Origin: Candidatus Zixiibacteriota bacterium
Lineage (GTDB): Bacteria > Zixibacteria > MSB-5A5 > GN15 > JACZUZ01
DNA: 64,000 nt
Direction of reading: 5' to 3'
Assembly (NCBI GenBank): GCA_024280775.1
Contig: JAJRPM010000004.1
Coordinates: forward strand, 391,054-455,053
Each line of letters begins with the position of its first letter. Within the stretch, counting starts at the first letter, position 1. The notes beneath the pieces were generated by a model. That model ran no database searches and was not told where the DNA came from. It worked only from the letters and a program-made list of their open reading frames with translations. Below, piece by piece: positions 12,460 through 43,490 of this stretch. The position numbers were made by a program, and so were the translations under genes.

Positions 12460-12615
12460 GAGGCTCTATCTAAGTAGCATAGCAATTATGCCACTTCCGA
12501 AGTCCATATTCCAAGATTTAATTCCGGTATTTCGAATGTGTGCAATACCGGTTCGCTCCCTTTTGTGGCGAACTGAATCGCCAGACACCTTCAATCCTAG
12601 ATGTCTCTATCGGAA

Positions 12616-12644
12616 ATCATAGACATTAGTCATAACCCTGTCAA
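12616..12644 (-). promoter_or_regulatory. Candidate sigma-70 promoter of the nuo operon (TTGACA-17 nt-TATGAT)
   Basis: Reading the minus strand, -35 TTGACA is at 12644-12639, the spacer is 17 nt, and -10 TATGAT is at 12621-12616. This implies a leader of about 150 nt before the nuoA ATG. Confidence 0.5.
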
Positions 12645-12696
12645 GACGACTTTGTGAAATCTGTAACAAAGTTTTAGTTTGTTGAACCACAGGGGC

Positions 12697-28274: not shown

Positions 28275-28757
28275 TCAAGCAGTCCGCTTGGAATCATCGA
28301 TTCGCTGGACGCGCATTTTACAACCTATTATGTAGAGGATCTCAACTACTTCTCCCGCCGGGACCGGCTCGTCACAAACCGCCCCCCAAACTTCGCCGTG
28401 CTCTATCACCTGGCCAGTGTCGTAAAACGGCATTAAGTCCCGAATCACTAACGCCTCTCTCCGGCGTGGTTGATATTGTTTTGAAAGGTTCGAAGGATCA
28501 CCGGGGAACAGTGACCATATCAATGGCAAGCCGGCAAATAAAGTAATTTGCGCTAGCGCAAATTCAGGAAATACATAAGCATAGACAGCAACTATGACCG
28601 CAAATAGGGCTATCTTGAGAAACTTAAACCCCAGGGCGAGTGAAACAAGAGCGAACACAACTGCTACAGCCCACCAAAACAGTGGCGCTGCTTTCGTTAC
28701 AATTGCAATTGTGTTACCAAACTTGGCGACAACCAAACTAACACTAGCCGAATCCAT
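28275..28757 (-). CDS. NfeD-like membrane protein
   Basis: It has three or four N-terminal TM helices. The C-terminus is OB-fold-like (GQVIEHGEVWGAVCDEPVPAGEVVEILYIIGCKMRVQRI). I chose the start at the Met preceded by GGAAGGAG-N8-ATG rather than the GTG at 28850. Confidence 0.6.
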   Translation of the reverse strand: MDSASVSLVVAKFGNTIAIVTKAAPLFWWAVAVVFALVSLALGFKFLKIALFAVIVAVYAYVFPEFALAQITLFAGLPLIWSLFPGDPSNLSKQYQPRRREALVIRDLMPFYDTGQVIEHGEVWGAVCDEPVPAGEVVEILYIIGCKMRVQRIDDSKRTA

Positions 28758-28902
28758 GGCGAACAACTCCTTCCCAGCGCATGGCAGAACCGAAACCGTC
28801 ACATGCACCGCACAAAGCTTAGCCCAAGAACACCTCAATACTGGCTTCACTAAACAGGCTCATCATACAGCGCGTCACTAGCCCTACCTTATGCACTGCA
28901 TA

Positions 28903-28931: not shown

Positions 28932-28938
28932 CTTCTTT

Positions 28939-29022
28939 GTGACATATGCCACTTGTTCGTAGTGTGACACGTCACAGTGACATTACAACATTACACTTGG
29001 AGGCTGTCACTACTTAGTGACA
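28939..29022. promoter_or_regulatory. Cluster of six GTGACA/TGTCAC-type hexamers forming overlapping inverted repeats
   Basis: GTGACA occurs at 28939, 28964, 28977 and 29017. GTCACA occurs at 28971 and TGTCAC at 29005. These include TGTGAC-AC-GTCACA and TGTCAC-N6-GTGACA. Confidence 0.45.
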
Positions 29023-29052
29023 CTTCAACATCCTCAGTAAACACACTCACAT

Positions 29053-29089
29053 ACAAAAAGAGCCGGGGCCTTAGTTAGGCCCCGGCTCT
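29053..29089 (-). terminator. Rho-independent terminator of the cytochrome module
   Basis: A perfect 12-bp GC-rich stem, AGAGCCGGGGCC (29059-70) with GGCCCCGGCTCT (29078-89), and a 7-nt loop. On the minus strand it is followed by TTTTTG. It lies 25 nt after the stop at 29114. Confidence 0.85.
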
Positions 29090-29113: not shown

Positions 29114-31231
29114 TTATCGCCTTAGCGAATATCCGTTGCTGTTGAGAGGCGGCGCGCCATTCGGGTTGCCGGTATTGAGGAAATTGATGGAAGATTTTAA
29201 TAGTCCGACAGTGTAGTCTGTGTTGTGGATACCTTCAGATCTGTCTTCTTCGACAAACTTGAAGTTGTAAACTGCGCCGGCGGAATCTGCTGTTGTTACA
29301 GTCACACTTAGCGGCGTACCTGACGCATCGACCAGATTCGCGGCTATTAGTAAGACCTTCAAACTATCAGCCAGTGAGTTTATCTCATCCTGAACACCTT
29401 CAATTGTACCATTGCCGTTGAAGTCCACGTCAGCTAACACGTTGAAATCTGAGATAGAACCATTGTGACAATTCGGGTCATTGCAACCACCGGTGTTCTG
29501 GAAATTGCGCGTCTTGTCGTGCATTATCCAAGTATGTCCTCCAGTGAATGTCGGAACTCCACCGTCCATGTGACATTGTATACATCCCTCGTCGGTCACA
29601 TTCGTATGCGCAGAGTTGCCATAACTGTACCCGGCGTATTCATATGCGTTCACGCCAATCAACATATCAGCCTGATTGCTATGGTGCGGCCCCCAATAGG
29701 CGCTGAGTGTCGTATTGGCGGTTACGTATGTACTCGCGTCCTGACGACTCTGGTGACAAGAGGCGCAAAGATTCGCGGGGCCTTTGTCAAAGGTCGCGCC
29801 GTTGGCCAAAGTAGCTGGAGTTTCTACTCGCAACTTGAAATCGCCGTTAGTGTGTGGCGCATGGCAGGTGAAGCAATTGATAGATGAGAAATGGTCGCCG
29901 GTGGCAGTTCCACCAGCCAGGTTCGCCACAAATCCTTCACTGGTGTGACACTTCTCACAAGCGGCATAGAAGGATTTGTTGTTGCGGTTTCTGTCTATGT
30001 TGTCACCTGAGGCGTGTTTAGAATTCTGCCATTGTTCACCCTTGGCCAACAGGAAGACATCCTTGTCTGAGTGACAGCTGAAACAACTAGTCGAAATATC
30101 CGTTTGTTCCACATGCACCCTACTTACATTAGCCGCCGCCCAGGTCTTGTCCTTATCAGAGTGACATTTCAGGCACGAGTAATCAAGTGTCAAATATCCA
30201 TTAGCAAACTTTCCATCCGCAGTAAACATTTCGGCGCTCGGATCGGTGTTGATTTGGAATAGATGTGACGGCACATCGCCTGAATAAGTTGCCAAATCAC
30301 CTATTGCGGATTTGGCTGCTTTGGGCATGTGGCAATCAATACACTCCGGTCCATTTGGATCCGCCTTGTGTTGGGTAATAGAAGTATTTTGGAAAGTATT
30401 GTATTCCTTGATGTGACAGTTCTCGCAATTTACGTTGATCGCTTGATCTCTATTAGGATTCAACGGATGCAGACTCTCATGCACATCGTGACAATCCACA
30501 CATTGAAGCGCTCTGTGTTGACTGCTGGCCATTTCATTCCATTGCTCGTGATGTCTGATGAACCCTCCGCTGGCCGGGATTGCGTTGACATCCCCACGAA
30601 TGTGACACTTACCACAGCCCTCGTTGGAGCGGTCGATTTTCATAGCCACACTCAGTGGGTCAGACTCATGCGCCTCACCCGGACCGTGACATTCTTCACA
30701 TTGGATGCCATTGGCTTCCCAGGTGCCAATAAGACCAGGTTTGCCTTCTTGATTGCCCACTGGTTTGTAGTTGGTCATGTGACACGGACCGCAATCATAG
30801 GGTTTGGTCTCGCCTGAGTGATATGCCACCCAGCCACCGGTTTCCAAATTGTATTGCACTTGATCACCAGTGATGATGAAACCATCATTGTCGATGAAGC
30901 GCGCCTTCCACCTGAAGCCACCGATAACTTTATCCACGTCAGCCCAATTCACACCAGGAGGCGGAGTCGGTACCGAGGAATACGGATAATAACCCGCTTG
31001 CTGGACATCCGAAGCCTCGTTGAGCTTGTATGGATGACCAGTCTTCATGAATTCTGTATACTTGGCCTCATGGCAACCGGTGGAACCGCAACTGGAACTC
31101 CCCATGTATGAAGCGGTAGCTGGTGTAACGGTTTTTGTGATTTCGTTTGTTACTGTTCGCTCGCAAGCAATGGAAACTGCCATAAATCCAATGGCTATTG
31201 TCCAAACTAATAGAGCATGTTTCTGTTTCAT
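29114..31231 (-). CDS. Multiheme c-type cytochrome lipoprotein (12 CxxCH plus 2 CxxxxCH)
   Basis: The signal peptide ends in the lipobox-like AVSIAC. I counted 12 CxxCH motifs. There are also two CX4CH motifs, CGSTGCH (31070-31090) and CNDPNCH (29465-29485). The C-terminal roughly 115 aa is heme-free and carries a Ca-loop-like DVDFNGNGTIE. Confidence 0.9.
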   Translation of the reverse strand: MKQKHALLVWTIAIGFMAVSIACERTVTNEITKTVTPATASYMGSSSCGSTGCHEAKYTEFMKTGHPYKLNEASDVQQAGYYPYSSVPTPPPGVNWADVDKVIGGFRWKARFIDNDGFIITGDQVQYNLETGGWVAYHSGETKPYDCGPCHMTNYKPVGNQEGKPGLIGTWEANGIQCEECHGPGEAHESDPLSVAMKIDRSNEGCGKCHIRGDVNAIPASGGFIRHHEQWNEMASSQHRALQCVDCHDVHESLHPLNPNRDQAINVNCENCHIKEYNTFQNTSITQHKADPNGPECIDCHMPKAAKSAIGDLATYSGDVPSHLFQINTDPSAEMFTADGKFANGYLTLDYSCLKCHSDKDKTWAAANVSRVHVEQTDISTSCFSCHSDKDVFLLAKGEQWQNSKHASGDNIDRNRNNKSFYAACEKCHTSEGFVANLAGGTATGDHFSSINCFTCHAPHTNGDFKLRVETPATLANGATFDKGPANLCASCHQSRQDASTYVTANTTLSAYWGPHHSNQADMLIGVNAYEYAGYSYGNSAHTNVTDEGCIQCHMDGGVPTFTGGHTWIMHDKTRNFQNTGGCNDPNCHNGSISDFNVLADVDFNGNGTIEGVQDEINSLADSLKVLLIAANLVDASGTPLSVTVTTADSAGAVYNFKFVEEDRSEGIHNTDYTVGLLKSSINFLNTGNPNGAPPLNSNGYSLRR

Positions 31232-31280: not shown

Positions 31281-32903
31281 TTATAATTGAATGTTCTTCT
31301 TTAGATATAGCTCAAAAATATTTCCAGTGTAAAATTGGTCTGCGAATAGAAAGTCATCGAAATTCTGCGCGGTGTATTTGAAACCTGCGCTATAGTCAGA
31401 TGTCACTTCATACGCCGCCTCGAGCTCCAGATTGAAGCGCTCGATATTCTGGTTTCTGCGGCTTCGCTGATATGACCCACCCAAACTCAGATTCAGCTTA
31501 TCGAACGTGACAGGCTTCACACGCGCTCTGATCACATTATCTGAAAACTCATAAGTGTCCTCTGCGCTATTGTTCTGAAACTTACCAACGTAGTACGAAT
31601 AGGTAACCGAAACAGAGCCATACTTTTTCGATTTTAGATTCGCTGTCGTGGTAATAACATTGTAATTGACACGAGTCTCTATGTTCGGATTCGTTAGTGT
31701 GTCACGGATTGAGAGCGCCGGGTCACGGTTTGTCGTTTTTCCACTCCAGCGCATTGAAACATCACCCCAACCTTTGTCTCGGTATTTGACAGTGACTTTT
31801 TGTCTGTAGGCTGTCAGGTCACCAGTTTGGGTTGCTCCATTGTTGACATTCTTGTCACGCAGGAAAAACTCGCCGTTGGCGCTGAAATGTTTCTTATCGC
31901 GCAACCAACCACCGATTATTATGCCGTTTGAGGTGGTTCTCTCACTGAGATCATCTGAGATACGATTCTCATAACCCAAACGAAGTCCATAACGACCGCG
32001 CCAGCTTTTTGCCAGAGTCAGCGCGTTGACAACATTGTCGGTTTCAGCGAACTGTCCTGAGCTGTTGTTTGTGCGGCCAAAGGTAAACTTGTAAGTAGCG
32101 CTCACTCTATTCGGCAATGACGCTCTAGCTATTGCCCAGCCAAGTTTTGTTTCCAACTCCTGAGCTCCGACATCAAGTTTGGCACGTCGGTAGGTGTAGC
32201 CACTGGACAGTGTTAGACGATCCCAACCGAACCGGCGGACGCCAGCGCGAATGTTGAAATTGTCGGTTGTCCTATCGGCGGCGCTCCGCGCATTATCGCT
32301 AAGCTTGGAGTTCCGGTATTCCACTCGAAGCTCTCCGTGGTGATCGAATGCCCTAGCCCCGATATTGTATGTCGTGTTTTGGTAATCTACTCTGTAAGAA
32401 GTGGTGTCAGCCCGCGACTGAAAAACATCAGTGAAGACACCCACCCGGTCAGTCAGCGAGAATCCTCCAAATAGTTCAGCGTTTCTCGAAGCGTTAACTG
32501 ACGCAGAACTACGGAATGACTCACGACGAACCGGGTCACTCGCATTCGCGCTGTAGATTCTCTGATTCCTGTCGTGATGCACATTCAACGAAAACGCGCC
32601 CGGTTTGAAGAGGCTTACTGTTTCGTTGCGATTCTTCAAAGTGGCATTGGTTATATCTGCGCGCAAACCAAGTCCATTTGCCCAAAAGTAGGAGAAGTCA
32701 TTAACACTAATGCCAAGTCCTTCGTAGAGGTCGAATGTCTTCTGGTTAACAGCCCGACTTCCTTCTTCGTCAGTGAGGACATACCCCAACTTTACGGTTC
32801 CACCGCCCGTTTGGGCTAGTAACGAATTCGATACCCCCGATAGCATCAGAAACAGAGCGGTTGACAGCGCTAGTATGATTATTCTTTTGACTGCATATTT
32901 CAT
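31281..32903 (-). CDS. Predicted outer-membrane beta-barrel (porin-like) protein
   Basis: A signal peptide (…SNSLLAQ) is followed by about 500 aa of alternating hydrophobic/polar dyads rich in Y, R, N, S and G, with no Cys and no TM helices. The start lies 1 nt after the upstream cytochrome stop. Confidence 0.7.
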   Translation of the reverse strand: MKYAVKRIIILALSTALFLMLSGVSNSLLAQTGGGTVKLGYVLTDEEGSRAVNQKTFDLYEGLGISVNDFSYFWANGLGLRADITNATLKNRNETVSLFKPGAFSLNVHHDRNQRIYSANASDPVRRESFRSSASVNASRNAELFGGFSLTDRVGVFTDVFQSRADTTSYRVDYQNTTYNIGARAFDHHGELRVEYRNSKLSDNARSAADRTTDNFNIRAGVRRFGWDRLTLSSGYTYRRAKLDVGAQELETKLGWAIARASLPNRVSATYKFTFGRTNNSSGQFAETDNVVNALTLAKSWRGRYGLRLGYENRISDDLSERTTSNGIIIGGWLRDKKHFSANGEFFLRDKNVNNGATQTGDLTAYRQKVTVKYRDKGWGDVSMRWSGKTTNRDPALSIRDTLTNPNIETRVNYNVITTTANLKSKKYGSVSVTYSYYVGKFQNNSAEDTYEFSDNVIRARVKPVTFDKLNLSLGGSYQRSRRNQNIERFNLELEAAYEVTSDYSAGFKYTAQNFDDFLFADQFYTGNIFELYLKKNIQL

Positions 32904-32904
32904 A

Positions 32905-33924
32905 TCATCCTCCTATCTCATCAAGCGGATGACATGTCGCCTCGAAACAATCCCTGAAGTAGCCCACCACACTTTGCAGGTTAGGTCGGAGAAAATGTTT
33001 GTCGGTGAATGATCCGTGGATATCTGAGTGGCAAGTGACACAGGTGCGATTATTGGCGATTCCGCCGTGCTCGGTCTCGTGTTTCGGTGGTTTGACGTGA
33101 CACTGTAAGCAAACATCATCCGAACGCTCTTTGAGGAGAAAGTTGGATTCGCTTCCATGCGGATTGTGACACTCCAAACATCCGTCACCCTCGGTTGTGT
33201 ATGTAACCGTCGCTTCATGCTCGTAGGGAAATGGACCTGTGTGTTCTGCGTGACAGTTTCCACACACGCCACCTGAACTTGAAATTACTCCGCCTATATC
33301 AGCGCCGGTAAAATCGTGGCAACTTAGACACAACGTATTCCCTTCGCTTACCGGATGTCTTGATCTGCGATCAAACTCAAGCTCGATATCCGAGTGACAT
33401 GACAAACACAATTCTTTTTCTGGCGCTATAAGGAGCTTCTTGGCGTTTACATCGGAGCTATGAACACTGTGACAATCCAAGCATCCCAACTCCCCGTCGA
33501 TATGAGCATTGAATCCTCGCCCATCGAGTTCAGTGTGAGGCATATGGCAATTAGAACACAGGGCTGTTTGGTTTGCAGGGTCCAGATTTGTTGGATTGGT
33601 GATGTTCTCCGCTGAAGGATCTTCCACATGATTCGTCGCCCCCATGTGACATGACGAGCAACTCAATCCGCCGAGATCAGCTATCGCATCGGCGTGAGCT
33701 GTGTGTTTCAGACTTGGAGCGCTTTCTTCATGGCAGTCAGCGCAAACCGATGATTCTACCTCCGGTGAATCAGAGAGGTTTGCCAGCGCCGGGTACCCCC
33801 CGATAAACCCCAGCGCCATGGCAAACACTACAACTATCGCAAGCGCCCCCAATATCCACCTTAGCCAGGCTTCGCGGCCCTGATCAACTATTCCCTGCTG
33901 TCCCAAAATACTATTCTTCGACAT
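32905..33924 (-). CDS. Decaheme c-type cytochrome (10 CxxCH plus 1 CxxxxCH) with an N-terminal hydrophobic segment
   Basis: I counted 10 CxxCH motifs. Paired-motif spacers of the MtrA/DmsE kind are present (GPFPYEH..., CLECHNPHGSESNFLL). The terminal motif CFEATCH is at 32929-32949. The N-terminal TM or signal segment is WILGALAIVVVFAMALGFIGG. Confidence 0.9.
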   Translation of the reverse strand: MSKNSILGQQGIVDQGREAWLRWILGALAIVVVFAMALGFIGGYPALANLSDSPEVESSVCADCHEESAPSLKHTAHADAIADLGGLSCSSCHMGATNHVEDPSAENITNPTNLDPANQTALCSNCHMPHTELDGRGFNAHIDGELGCLDCHSVHSSDVNAKKLLIAPEKELCLSCHSDIELEFDRRSRHPVSEGNTLCLSCHDFTGADIGGVISSSGGVCGNCHAEHTGPFPYEHEATVTYTTEGDGCLECHNPHGSESNFLLKERSDDVCLQCHVKPPKHETEHGGIANNRTCVTCHSDIHGSFTDKHFLRPNLQSVVGYFRDCFEATCHPLDEIGG

Positions 33925-34019
33925 CGATATGTTTACCCCTCATAATTACCGAGTTCCCGACTCTTGTATCGACGATAGTGTCAAAGACTTAACAATGTCA
34001 AGACTTTATTATTGGGCCA

Positions 34020-34035
34020 TGTGATTTTTTTCACA
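34020..34035. promoter_or_regulatory. Perfect CRP-family palindrome TGTGA-TTTTTT-TCACA
   Basis: The exact consensus half-sites with 6-nt spacing are centred about 103 bp upstream of the decaheme ATG (33924). This is about 20 bp upstream of a minus-strand TTGACA hexamer (34001-33996). Confidence 0.55.
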
Positions 34036-34103
34036 AGACCTGTCGGGCCCTCATTAGGACACATGACGATTAGTAGCTTGTGCTACTGTCATTTACGTAA
34101 GCA

Positions 34104-34117
34104 TTGACGTTCATCAA
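34104..34117. promoter_or_regulatory. FNR-box-like site TTGAC-GTTC-ATCAA
   Basis: It has one mismatch to TTGAT-N4-ATCAA. An adjacent perfect 8-bp palindrome, TTACGTAA, lies at 34093-34100. Confidence 0.3.
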
Positions 34118-34447
34118 AATCTCGACAATACCGGACCTTTACTGTCCGCATAGCGGCTTTAATTCACCTCGACAGAACGCAGAGTATTCAGACCTACCTA
34201 TCGGAAATGATTCACAGGAAGGCTGATGAGCCTGTGCCCCCAGAATTCCTAGCCGCGGCGAGGCAAGAACAATCAAAACCAGGAAAGTTTTGTAGATACT
34301 GCTATTGCCTGCGTCAAGGGGAGATGAATATCTACCGACAAACAGAGTAGTGACCGCGCCTTCGTCACGCTTTGGACTTCTGAAGGAATGTGATATCCAA
34401 ATCGCTCAATATCAAATCCCCAGGGCGCATCACAAACGAGCCAGAAC

Positions 34448-35326
34448 ATGACGAAAGACATACAACAGAGTAGTTCTCTTGAACAGATTCTCAACACTAT
34501 CGGCGAGTTACCTAGCTCCCCGGCAGTAGTTAGTCTGGTGATGGGAATGACTTCGGATTTGAATACTGATGTGCGCGAGTTATCGCGAGCGTTATCCTCA
34601 GATCCGGCAATGGCGGCTCGCGCTTTGCGGCTGTCGAATTCTCCATTCTATGGACGACCGGCAGATGTCAGCTCAGTCGAGGAGGCAGTGCTGGTTTTGG
34701 GCTTCTTCACAGTTCGTTCTTTGGTGGTCGCCACTGCAACCTATGACTTGTTCAAGGGTGACGGTCAATCAGAGAATCAGGAGAATCTAGCTAGCGCTCT
34801 ATGGGAGCATTCACTGGCAACTGCAATTGCTTCCCGGCAAATAGCTCAATTGATAGAGCATAACAATCTTGAAGAGTGTTTCCTGGCCGGACTAATGCAT
34901 GACATTGGCAAGCTTATTTTGCTGAAGAAATTTCCGGAGCAATACCCAGAGATGATCGAGGGGGCTCAACCGGGAGTAAGCAGTATCCCCGGTGAACGTG
35001 AAGCATTCGGATTCGGTCATGACGAACTCGGCTCGGCTCTCTTGAGTTCATGGTCTTTCCCTGAGCTGTTGGTGAGCGCTATCGCCGACCATCATGACCG
35101 CACTGCCCAGCAGGAAAATGAGCCAATTAGTATTTCAAATATAGTGAATCTAGCCAGCGCAGTCGCGCGAGAAATCGGCGCAGGATTTGGAGAATCCGAC
35201 ATTGAGGAATTCTCCGCAGAGAATCTATGGAGCGCCAAGGCGCTTTCTATCGACGATGAGAAACTCGCGGAGATTCGTGACAATCTAGCTGAAAACTTCC
35301 AACAGGAACGCAGTCTATTTGTCTGA
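34448..35326 (+). CDS. HDOD-domain signalling protein
   Basis: Contains LPSSPAVVSLVMGMTSDLNTDVRELSRALSSDPAMAARALRLSNSPFYG ... AGLMHDIGKLILL. Confidence 0.85.
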   Translation: MTKDIQQSSSLEQILNTIGELPSSPAVVSLVMGMTSDLNTDVRELSRALSSDPAMAARALRLSNSPFYGRPADVSSVEEAVLVLGFFTVRSLVVATATYDLFKGDGQSENQENLASALWEHSLATAIASRQIAQLIEHNNLEECFLAGLMHDIGKLILLKKFPEQYPEMIEGAQPGVSSIPGEREAFGFGHDELGSALLSSWSFPELLVSAIADHHDRTAQQENEPISISNIVNLASAVAREIGAGFGESDIEEFSAENLWSAKALSIDDEKLAEIRDNLAENFQQERSLFV

Positions 35327-35353
35327 GATACATCAGTAAGTATCCCGGAGAAA

Positions 35354-36922
35354 TTGCAATTAGGCATAGCGTTAAAAATAACACAGATGAAGAAATCCAA
35401 ACTACATGCCGCCTCTCGCTTGCGACTTGATCAGTTTCTGGATAACGGCTCCTTGCCATCTATTCCTCAGGTGCTTTTCAAGATTCGCGAGGTCAGCGAG
35501 GACCCCAAGTCCGGAGTTGCTGACTTAGCCAATGTAATCCTTACCGACCATCAACTGACAACCCGTATTCTCCGAATGGCGAATTCCGCATACTATGGTG
35601 AATATGCGGGGAAAGTTACTCGTGTGACACAGGCGGTTACATTGATGGGATTTCGCTCGGTGAGAAATGCGGCGTTGGCGCTGGCGATTTACTCAGCGGT
35701 GGAGAAACTTTCGAAATGCACAGCCTTTGATTTTCCGACGTTTTGGACTCGCTCAATTGGAGTCGGGGTTATTGCCAAGCAATTGGCCCTGAGCAATGGC
35801 TACCGTTCGTCAGAAGAAGCATTTATCACAGGTTTTCTGCACAATATCGGCCAGCCGCTTCTCGCGGCGGTTTTTCCCCGGGAATATGATGAAATACTGA
35901 TGAAAAACCCCACACCAAATTCTCTACCGGACTTTGAAGAAGAGGTATTGGGGCTGAATCATCTCATAGCCGGTGGCTGGCTGGCGCGCAAATGGAAACT
36001 TCCGCTCAAACTGGTGGCGCCAATCGAAGAGCATGATAGACGCTCATACAAGGAAAACGAGCGCGCAAGTGAACGGCTGACAGATTATGTCTATGTCGCA
36101 AACAGACTTTTTCCACATGTGATGATCCGTAACACCGGGCAAGGCGGATCGTTGGCCCGCACACAGAGTGAAGCATTGAGTTTGCTCGATTTGAAGCCTG
36201 AGAATATCGATGCACTGGTTGAGGACGGTCGCGCATTGATTGTTGAAATCGCTTCTGAATTGAATATGCAAATCAGCGAGGGAGCTCAGGAGAATCCGTT
36301 AGAATCTGTAGCGGCCCTCAATTCAAAACTGGCGCTGCGTGAATTGCAACTATCTATCATCCAAGGCGCTACTGAGGCTTTGATGAAAGCGAATTCTGAT
36401 GAGGATGTTTTAGGAATTGTTGTCGATGGAGCGTTCCGGGGTTTGGAGCTTGGGGCGATGGTGTTCTTCGAAAAATCTGAGAGCAACGGAGAATTCACCG
36501 GGATGCTGGGCTATGGAAGAATCAACCCTGCAAGGAGTCAATTAGTTATTCCGCAGAATCAGAGTAACGCCGACCTATTTGACAAGCTAAACGCCGGGAA
36601 TATCTATCAGGGGAAATCTTTGCCAGCGACCATTGATGGTGTGCAAAGCAACGCCGCTCTAACAGCTGATGAAAACTTTGACCCCGAAGCAACCCTGTAT
36701 ATTCAGCAAAACAACAAGTTTGTGGCTATACCTTTGCACGTAGAAGGCGAATTGAAATACATCGCCATCGCAACTCCTCATACAGGCTATGACCACGTAG
36801 ACGAACAAAAAGTCCGCACCCTCAGCTCACTGTGCTCACAAGCATCACTATCCCTGGTGAGCCTTTCGCTTCGTCGCCGTCTCAAAGATGGCGAAATGCA
36901 GCGCATCAACGTTTCACACTAA
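35354..36922 (+). CDS. HDOD-domain protein with a C-terminal GAF-like region
   Basis: Contains LPSIPQVLFKIREVSEDPKSGVADLANVILTDHQLTTRILRMANSAYYG ... GFLHNIGQPLL. The C-terminal roughly 200 aa is uncharacterised. The true start may be the Met at 35387. Confidence 0.8.
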   Translation: MQLGIALKITQMKKSKLHAASRLRLDQFLDNGSLPSIPQVLFKIREVSEDPKSGVADLANVILTDHQLTTRILRMANSAYYGEYAGKVTRVTQAVTLMGFRSVRNAALALAIYSAVEKLSKCTAFDFPTFWTRSIGVGVIAKQLALSNGYRSSEEAFITGFLHNIGQPLLAAVFPREYDEILMKNPTPNSLPDFEEEVLGLNHLIAGGWLARKWKLPLKLVAPIEEHDRRSYKENERASERLTDYVYVANRLFPHVMIRNTGQGGSLARTQSEALSLLDLKPENIDALVEDGRALIVEIASELNMQISEGAQENPLESVAALNSKLALRELQLSIIQGATEALMKANSDEDVLGIVVDGAFRGLELGAMVFFEKSESNGEFTGMLGYGRINPARSQLVIPQNQSNADLFDKLNAGNIYQGKSLPATIDGVQSNAALTADENFDPEATLYIQQNNKFVAIPLHVEGELKYIAIATPHTGYDHVDEQKVRTLSSLCSQASLSLVSLSLRRRLKDGEMQRINVSH

Positions 36923-37040: not shown

Positions 37041-37127
37041 TGGTGCCGAAGGGGGGACTCGAACCCCCACGTCCTTACGGACACTACGCCCTGAACGTAG
37101 CGCGTCTACCAATTCCACCACTTCGGC
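37041..37127 (-). tRNA. tRNA-Leu (anticodon CAG), CCA encoded
   Basis: I folded it by hand. The acceptor stem is GCCGAAG/CTTCGGC. The anticodon stem is CTACG/CGTAG with loop TTCAGGG. The long variable arm is GTCC-GTAA-GGAC. The T arm is GGGGG-TTCGAGT-CCCCC. The 3' end is ACCA. Confidence 0.9.
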
Positions 37128-43128: not shown

Positions 43129-43490
43129 ATCTTAAAAACCCCTCTCTTCTCGGCCCGCAGTCTAGCGCCCAGAAAGCTGATAATCCTTAAATTCCTATCG
43201 ATTATGAGCATCTGCCGTCACTTCACACGCATTTAGCGCCGAGCCAAGAAATATATGTCATTTTTTCTATCTGTCAATGGGAAAGTTTATGTCTTTGGCA
43301 ATCACTTTCCATATCGGTTATACGCCGGGCTTCACTGTAGAGTTTCTCGATAGTGACAAGTTTCACAAAAGTCGCCCATATAACATACATGCGGCTCAAA
43401 GTGGGCGATAACCCGCCAAGCCTGGCCTGCAAAATACACATTCGAGTCCTCCAACTTGACGACTCGATATTCACCTCGTATGGTTTTGTA

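Follow-up and report, generated by a model that had tools for sequence, protein, structure and literature searches.

The lac P1 promoter of Escherichia coli, with its long 18-nt spacer and weak -10 element, belongs to the class-I CRP-dependent type. In this type of promoter a TGTGA-N6-TCACA site is centred near -61.5, an A/T-rich stretch separates the site from the -35 element, and the -10 element is a weak TATnnT. Repression of E. coli ndh by FNR is exerted from a site near -50.5. In Shewanella oneidensis, CRP sites are found at -61.5 in PomcA and at -60.5 in PmtrC, ahead of an outer-membrane multihaem cytochrome/Mtr operon (PMC4417206). A comparable palindrome is recognized by Rex, an NADH/NAD+-sensing repressor whose operator consensus is TTGTGAAW4TTCACAA in Staphylococcus aureus (PMC2883068), also given as TTGTGAANNNNTTCACAA (PMC6391272). 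In Streptomyces avermitilis, nuoA1-N1 is a proven Rex target, and the mapped operators of Rex either overlap the core promoter elements (-35 or -10) or +1, or lie downstream of the start (PMC5355995).

A palindrome of this kind is present in the window, the stretch of 64,000 nucleotides analysed here, which comes from an uncultured Candidatus Zixiibacteriota bacterium. The sequence TGTGATTTTTTTCACA at 34020-34035 consists of inverted TGTGA and TCACA half-sites with a 6-bp gap, in agreement with the sequence and coordinates of the initial annotation, and the extended 18-mer (34019-34036) reads TTGTGAAAAAAATCACAT towards the operon that follows it. The palindrome is situated in the 523-bp spacer (33925-34447) between two diverging genes. 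Its centre, at 34027.5, is 103.5 bp from the ATG (33924) of a decahaem cytochrome gene and 29 bp from the centre of a TTGACA hexamer (34001-33996), so that the spacer length and the distances of about 103 and 29 bp reported at the outset were correct.

Exact matches to TGTGA-N6-TCACA number two in the window, against 0.10 expected from dinucleotide shuffles, one of 100 of which yielded two matches; the original estimate had been about 0.06 chance matches per 64 kb. The second match (29944-29959) is a coding artefact, and the intergenic palindrome is not. This second match falls inside a 705-aa cytochrome gene, where the coding strand reads TGT GAG AAG TGT CAC A and encodes C-E-K-C-H, a CxxCH haem motif, and three more matches with one mismatch in the same gene all coincide with CxxCH codons. 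Because haem motifs mimic the consensus, only the intergenic copy requires explanation. The mimics in the window (29944-29959, 30412-30427, 30601-30616 and 30685-30700) and one in the orthologous locus L026 (13944-13959) encode the motifs CEKCH, CENCH, CGKCH and CEECH. CxxCH haem codons of the form TGT GAx xxx TGT CAC A thus systematically produce spurious CRP/Rex sites around cytochrome genes, and genome scans for either regulator in such regions must mask coding sequence. The enrichment test upstream of respiratory genes proposed in the initial annotation would be confounded by the same mimicry.

Four orthologous loci (L024, L025, L026 and L027), with decahaem proteins 70-78% identical, were compared with the window. 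In all five loci the decahaem gene diverges from an HDOD gene. The ten core bases are invariant in the window, L024, L025 and L026, four of the five orthologous spacers, whereas only 12.8% of the 407 other intergenic columns are invariant among the same four, and the spacers are elsewhere nearly saturated with substitutions and indels. The sites read TTGTGAAAAAAATCACAT (window), ATGTGAAAAAGTTCACAT (L024), ATGTGAAAAAATTCACAT (L025) and TTGTGAAATATTTCACAA (L026). Their shared pattern is TGTGAA-W4-TTCACA, with TGTGAA/TTCACA in seven of eight half-sites and A or T at 15 of the 16 central positions. On this comparative evidence, the palindrome is a real, evolutionarily conserved regulator site of the cytochrome operon promoter.

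The conservation has limits. L027 carries AGTGA on one side only, having lost one half-site and retained the promoter, so at least one lineage can do without the site. Among 99 decahaem loci with usable upstream sequence, the only non-coding matches were in three close orthologues; the non-coding regions upstream of the 96 more distant decahaem genes contained no match with one mismatch or fewer, so the site is clade-specific. A search of GTDB representative genomes and JGI metagenomes with the decahaem protein recovered only distant relatives of at most 37% identity, the best match in the GTDB representative genomes being 33% identical.

Downstream of the palindrome, TTGACA-N18-TATCGT is the top match of a promoter scan. 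The -35 element TTGACA (33996..34001, minus strand) is kept in all five loci, as TTGACT in L025, and the -10 element TATCGT (33972..33977, minus strand) conforms to TAT(C/T)GT in five of five, with TATTGT in three orthologues. The spacer between them is exactly 18 nt across the orthologues. The initial annotation had found no convincing -10 element; TATCGT, 18 nt downstream of TTGACA, now fills that place. The organism uses canonical promoters, since intergenic DNA makes up only 8.7% of the window yet contains five of its six TTGACN-N16-18-TANNNT matches, each oriented towards the downstream gene. Transcription is predicted to start at about 33965-33967, which would centre the palindrome between -60.5 and -62.5 (approximately -61.5 ± 1).

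The A/T-rich linker between the palindrome and the -35 element (34002..34019, minus strand) is 18 nt long in all four site-bearing loci, and its sequence has diverged. That the distance remains exactly 18 nt despite a diverged linker and an indel-rich spacer speaks for a stereospecific contact with RNA polymerase, and the linker may act as a UP-like docking segment for the polymerase alpha C-terminal domain. A perfect -35 element combined with an over-long 18-nt spacer and a weak TATCGT suggests that the promoter would be responsive to an activator. The class-I geometry that had been advanced tentatively is strengthened by the conserved TTGACA, the conserved TAT(C/T)GT and the invariant 18-nt distance. 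Two other arrangements were rejected. The palindrome could in principle contribute a -35 element of its own (TTGTGA-N17-AATAAT), but L025, L026 and L027 do not conserve the corresponding -10. An inverted repeat flanking the promoter (33951-33961 / 34042-34052) was discarded because its upstream arm is unconserved.

Directly after the -10 element lies a 22-nt block, CGATACAAGAGTCGGGAACTCG (33950..33971, minus strand), that is nearly invariant in the five loci and forms part of the most conserved stretch of the spacer. It holds GAGT-N5-ACTC with a variable loop, and its predicted fold is weak (-3.6 kcal/mol, z = 0.4). A 5′ stem-loop and a second operator are candidate roles for this block. A Shine-Dalgarno sequence, GAGGGG (33936..33941, minus strand), stands ahead of the ATG at 33924. 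Between promoter and start codon, an extra leader of about 190 nt is present in L025 (2404-2678) and of about 60 nt in L027 (~1960-2042), and is absent from the remaining orthologues.

The promoter is followed by three genes on the minus strand. The first (32905..33924) encodes an MtrA/DmsE-like decahaem cytochrome with ten CxxCH motifs, which scores 155 bits against TIGR03508 (DmsE family), below the 192-bit cut-off. The second (31281..32903), whose position is kept in L025 and L026, encodes a protein of 540 aa that carries a signal peptide and matches no family; this protein is presumed to be the outer-membrane barrel partner. The third (29114..31231) encodes the 705-aa cytochrome, a 12-haem protein with a lipoprotein-like N-terminus and a match to MtrC/MtrF domain II/IV. 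The operon ends at an intrinsic terminator (29054..29089, minus strand) composed of AGAGCCGGGGCC-loop-GGCCCCGGCTCT and TTTTT, with an equivalent hairpin in L026. The three genes may constitute an MtrCAB-type porin-cytochrome module, the middle barrel being presumed. Just past the terminator, a cluster of TGTCAC/GTGACA repeats (e.g. TGTCACTAAGTAGTGACA and GTCACTGTGACGTGTCAC) occupies 28935-29025 on the minus strand, before an NfeD-like gene (28275-28850) that is missing from the syntenic L026.

On the other side of the spacer, two tandem HDOD-domain genes (34448..36922, plus strand) diverge from the operon. This pairing is kept in every orthologous locus, a pattern suggesting that HDOD signalling and the conduit are functionally linked. 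In the second HDOD gene, the C-terminal half of about 270 aa is unassigned. A tRNA gene (37044-37127, minus strand), the sole Rfam match in the window at the gathering threshold, has the second HDOD gene on one side and a membrane glycosyltransferase-like gene on the other. Further products encoded in the window include a T9SS sorting-domain protein and a short sigma factor of the SigA type.

A related site is found at a second respiratory promoter. The window was scanned for the 18-mer TTGTGAA-N4-TTCACAA with up to two mismatches, which gave three matches against 0.31 expected, all three intergenic. One of them, TTGTTACAGATTTCACAA (12652..12669, minus strand), lies upstream of nuoA and is kept in L108, L109, L111 and L112, the last of which is from the same genome assembly as L026. 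NuoD of L108, L109 and L111 is 90%, 82% and 77% identical, respectively, to that of the window, whose closest named relatives are in candidate division Zixibacteria at 82% identity. The nuo promoter consists of TTGACA (12639-12644), N17 and TATGAT (12616-12621), and the site is separated from its -35 element by 8 nt measured from the 16-base core, or 7 nt from the 18-mer. With respect to the predicted start, the site is centred at about -51.5, exactly 10 bp nearer to the -35 element than at the cytochrome promoter. The site, its distance to the -35 element and the promoter are retained in four further genomes, five in all. The five nuo sites match TTGTGAA-N4-TTCACAA at 11-12 of 14 positions; their promoter-proximal TTCACAA is invariant and their distal half, T[TA]G[TA]TA[CA], is weak.

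The third match, TAGTGACAAGTTTCACAAAAGTCG (43351-43368), lies between the divergent promoters of an HtrA-like and an aldolase gene. Its likeness to the nuo-type site is close and extends to the trailing AGTCG. With no conserved counterpart in L026, and with some 85-100 bp between it and either neighbouring -35 element, the match is doubtful as a regulator site. An 11-mer, ATTTCCGATAG, common to the nuo and decahaem spacers was rejected as a signal: it is absent from L109 and L111, and in 5.4 kb of intergenic DNA about seven shared 11-mers are expected by calculation. The nuo leader, about 150 nt long (12461-12612, minus strand; 4420-4555 in L108), has a strong predicted structure, folding to -42.4 kcal/mol (z = -3.6). 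Compensatory changes are seen in its first hairpin, GACATC...GGTGTC in the window against GGCGTC...GACGCC in L108, and the leader has no Rfam match.

The reading we favour, with confidence that stands about level, is that the regulator is a class-I activator of the CRP/FNR family. The palindrome would be the operator of a dimeric helix-turn-helix regulator and would govern the sigma-70-type promoter of the three-gene porin-cytochrome operon (decahaem cytochrome, presumed barrel and 12-haem lipoprotein). A CRP/FNR-family protein bound about 61.5 bp upstream of the start would recruit RNA polymerase via the alpha C-terminal domain across the A/T-rich 18-nt linker. The weaker nuo site at about -51.5 abuts a near-consensus promoter, where this protein may act on Complex I as a modulator or repressor.

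Several features argue for this family. The position near -61.5 is held by an 18-nt distance that is rigid over a diverged linker, and between the two promoters the site shifts by one helical turn. The locus shares with the lac P1 type the TGTGA-N6-TCACA site near -61.5, the A/T-rich stretch between site and -35, and the core promoter weaknesses of an 18-nt spacer and a TATnGT -10. It differs in its perfect TTGACA and a start that is predicted, in inner bases that are A/T-swapped (TGTGAA instead of E. coli TGTGAT), in its host, a member of the FCB superphylum (Fibrobacteres-Chlorobi-Bacteroidetes group), and in that no CRP gene or cAMP machinery was seen here. CRP/FNR paralogues are also generally far more numerous than Rex. 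In contrast to the mapped operators of Rex (PMC5355995), the decahaem 18-mer is clear of the core promoter. The Shewanella parallel raised in the initial annotation is upheld by the -61.5 and -60.5 positions of the omcA and mtrC sites, although those sites are poor (TCAGA...TCACA or a half-site) and are not accompanied by a good -35, whereas both elements are consensus here (PMC4417206). As the phylum is unrelated to Shewanella, any similarity would be convergent.

Other features weigh against a CRP/FNR-family activator. The inner bases TGTGAA/TTCACA fail the extended E. coli CRP consensus TGTGAT...ATCACA and, together with the A/T-only centre, correspond to the Rex consensus. Of the original proposal, the operator at a predicted class-I position holds, and the specific assignment to CRP is not firmly supported. 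The extended consensus is, however, the optimum of the E. coli protein rather than of the family, and CRP/FNR proteins of other bacteria may prefer other inner bases. In addition, nuo is among the documented targets of Rex, a perfect -35 element is atypical of activator-dependent promoters, L027 retains the promoter after losing one half-site, and the motif is missing upstream of the 96 more distant decahaem genes. To our knowledge, E. coli CRP does not activate from -51.5. Neither Pfam nor tblastn searches found a CRP/FNR-family gene in the window, in line with the earlier statement that none is encoded there. The tblastn searches, which used E. coli CRP and FNR and Bacillus subtilis and Thermus aquaticus Rex as queries, also found none in the 112 fetched loci, which include about 170 kb from relatives of the lineage.

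Repression of ndh by FNR offers a possible model for the nuo site, since in both cases a CRP/FNR-family dimer would sit just upstream of the -35 element of an NADH dehydrogenase promoter. The FNR half-sites are TTGAT instead of TGTGA, and ndh encodes NDH-II, not Complex I. In a wider, tentative and rather doubtful reading, one redox- or energy-state regulator, CRP-like or Rex, would co-ordinate the conduit and Complex I in Zixibacteria through helically phased sites at about -62 and -52, activating one of the two operons and restraining the other.

Rex is a serious rival that the initial annotation had not weighed, as its operator appears to fit the conserved sites equally well as or better than that of E. 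coli CRP. An NADH/NAD+-sensing repressor would then control both the cytochrome and the nuo operons, binding at low NADH and releasing both operons when electron acceptors run short. The decahaem sites match TTGTGAA-N4-TTCACAA at 12, 12, 12 and 14 of 14 positions, the L026 site TTGTGAAATATTTCACAA being a perfect match, and the predominance of A/T in the central 4 bp (15 of 16) is as in the S. aureus consensus (PMC2883068, PMC6391272). The intergenic location of all three 18-mer matches in the window, against 0.31 expected, and the retention of one of them upstream of nuoA in five genomes likewise speak for Rex, and an electron-export conduit would be a sensible member of an NADH-overflow regulon. 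The likeness to the known Rex operators (S. avermitilis nuoA1, cydA1, atpI and rex, and the S. aureus boxes) thus extends from the 18-bp sequence to respiratory targets that include nuo.

The position of the sites is more difficult to reconcile with a repressor of this type. Known Rex operators overlap the core promoter or lie downstream of it, but both conserved sites here are wholly upstream of the -35 element at a fixed distance: the 18-mers end 17 nt (decahaem) and 7 nt (nuo) before the predicted -35, and neither overlaps the core promoter. The strictness of the 18-nt distance and the 10 bp by which the two promoters differ suggest the face-of-helix contact typical of an activator. Furthermore, the nuo distal half-site is without the second G in all five genomes, and tblastn detected no rex gene in the window or the 112 fetched loci. 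Literature searches linking Zixibacteria or Bacteroides with Rex returned nothing relevant. For an NADH-linked regulon, the nuo site in five genomes is the evidence from about 106 kb of the lineage that was scanned. Control by Rex is a possible explanation, though not a probable one.

A palindrome-reading regulator that belongs to neither the CRP/FNR nor the Rex family is improbable. Such a protein may work in concert with the conserved block where the transcript begins or with a conserved inverted repeat farther upstream. The most conserved stretch of the spacer is 33950-33978 and not the palindrome, and the regulators of this phylum are uncharacterized. The spacer also holds two partly conserved inverted repeats near its middle, TATTTCCGAY-N6-GTCGGAAATA (~34185-34211), best preserved in L026, and GGAC-N7-GTCC (34133-34147). 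These may be sites of other regulators or belong to the HDOD promoter region, and they suggest that the region carries more than one regulatory input. On the other hand, no candidate protein can be named, and we know of no families other than CRP/FNR and Rex for which TGTGA-N6-TCACA with such spacing is characteristic.

Two further motifs in the spacer are probably due to chance. Both TTACGTAA (34093-34100) and the FNR-like TTGAC-N4-ATCAA TTGACGTTCATCAA (34104-34117) are present at the coordinates first reported, but neither is conserved in any of the four orthologous regions. Moreover, TTGACGTTCATCAA is not a TTGAT-N4-ATCAA box conserved at a promoter-relevant position, as an FNR site would be.

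It is very improbable that the palindrome acts as a nucleic-acid hairpin, whether a terminator or another RNA element. In the window the palindrome and its flanks do fold to -11.2 kcal/mol (z = -3.65), but no T-run follows the stem, a terminator scan of 33800-34600 found none, and an Rfam search of the spacer gave no match. Both neighbouring genes point away from the palindrome, so no transcript should end there, and the site lies upstream of the predicted start. The flanking GGTC/GGCC pairs are not conserved, and instead of covariation the half-sites show invariant bases, as readout by a protein predicts. Least tenable is a functionless chance palindrome: a single exact match in 64 kb would be no great surprise (0.1 expected), but the retention of ten bases and of their position in four diverged orthologues effectively refutes it.

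We know of nothing described on the regulation of extracellular electron transfer in uncultured lineages of the FCB superphylum. The 85-bp conserved operator-promoter pair, with its defined -35, -10 and spacing, can be synthesized and, with no need for a culture of the organism, tested in vitro or in E. coli. If the regulator is CRP-like, the locus would represent a convergent copy of the Shewanella -61.5 architecture. If it is Rex, this would be a case of Rex acting from an activator-type position, and would give the first link between a regulator and a porin-cytochrome operon outside Proteobacteria. The choice between a cAMP/CRP-like and an NADH/Rex system amounts to a two-way prediction of the physiological signal that would switch the conduit on.
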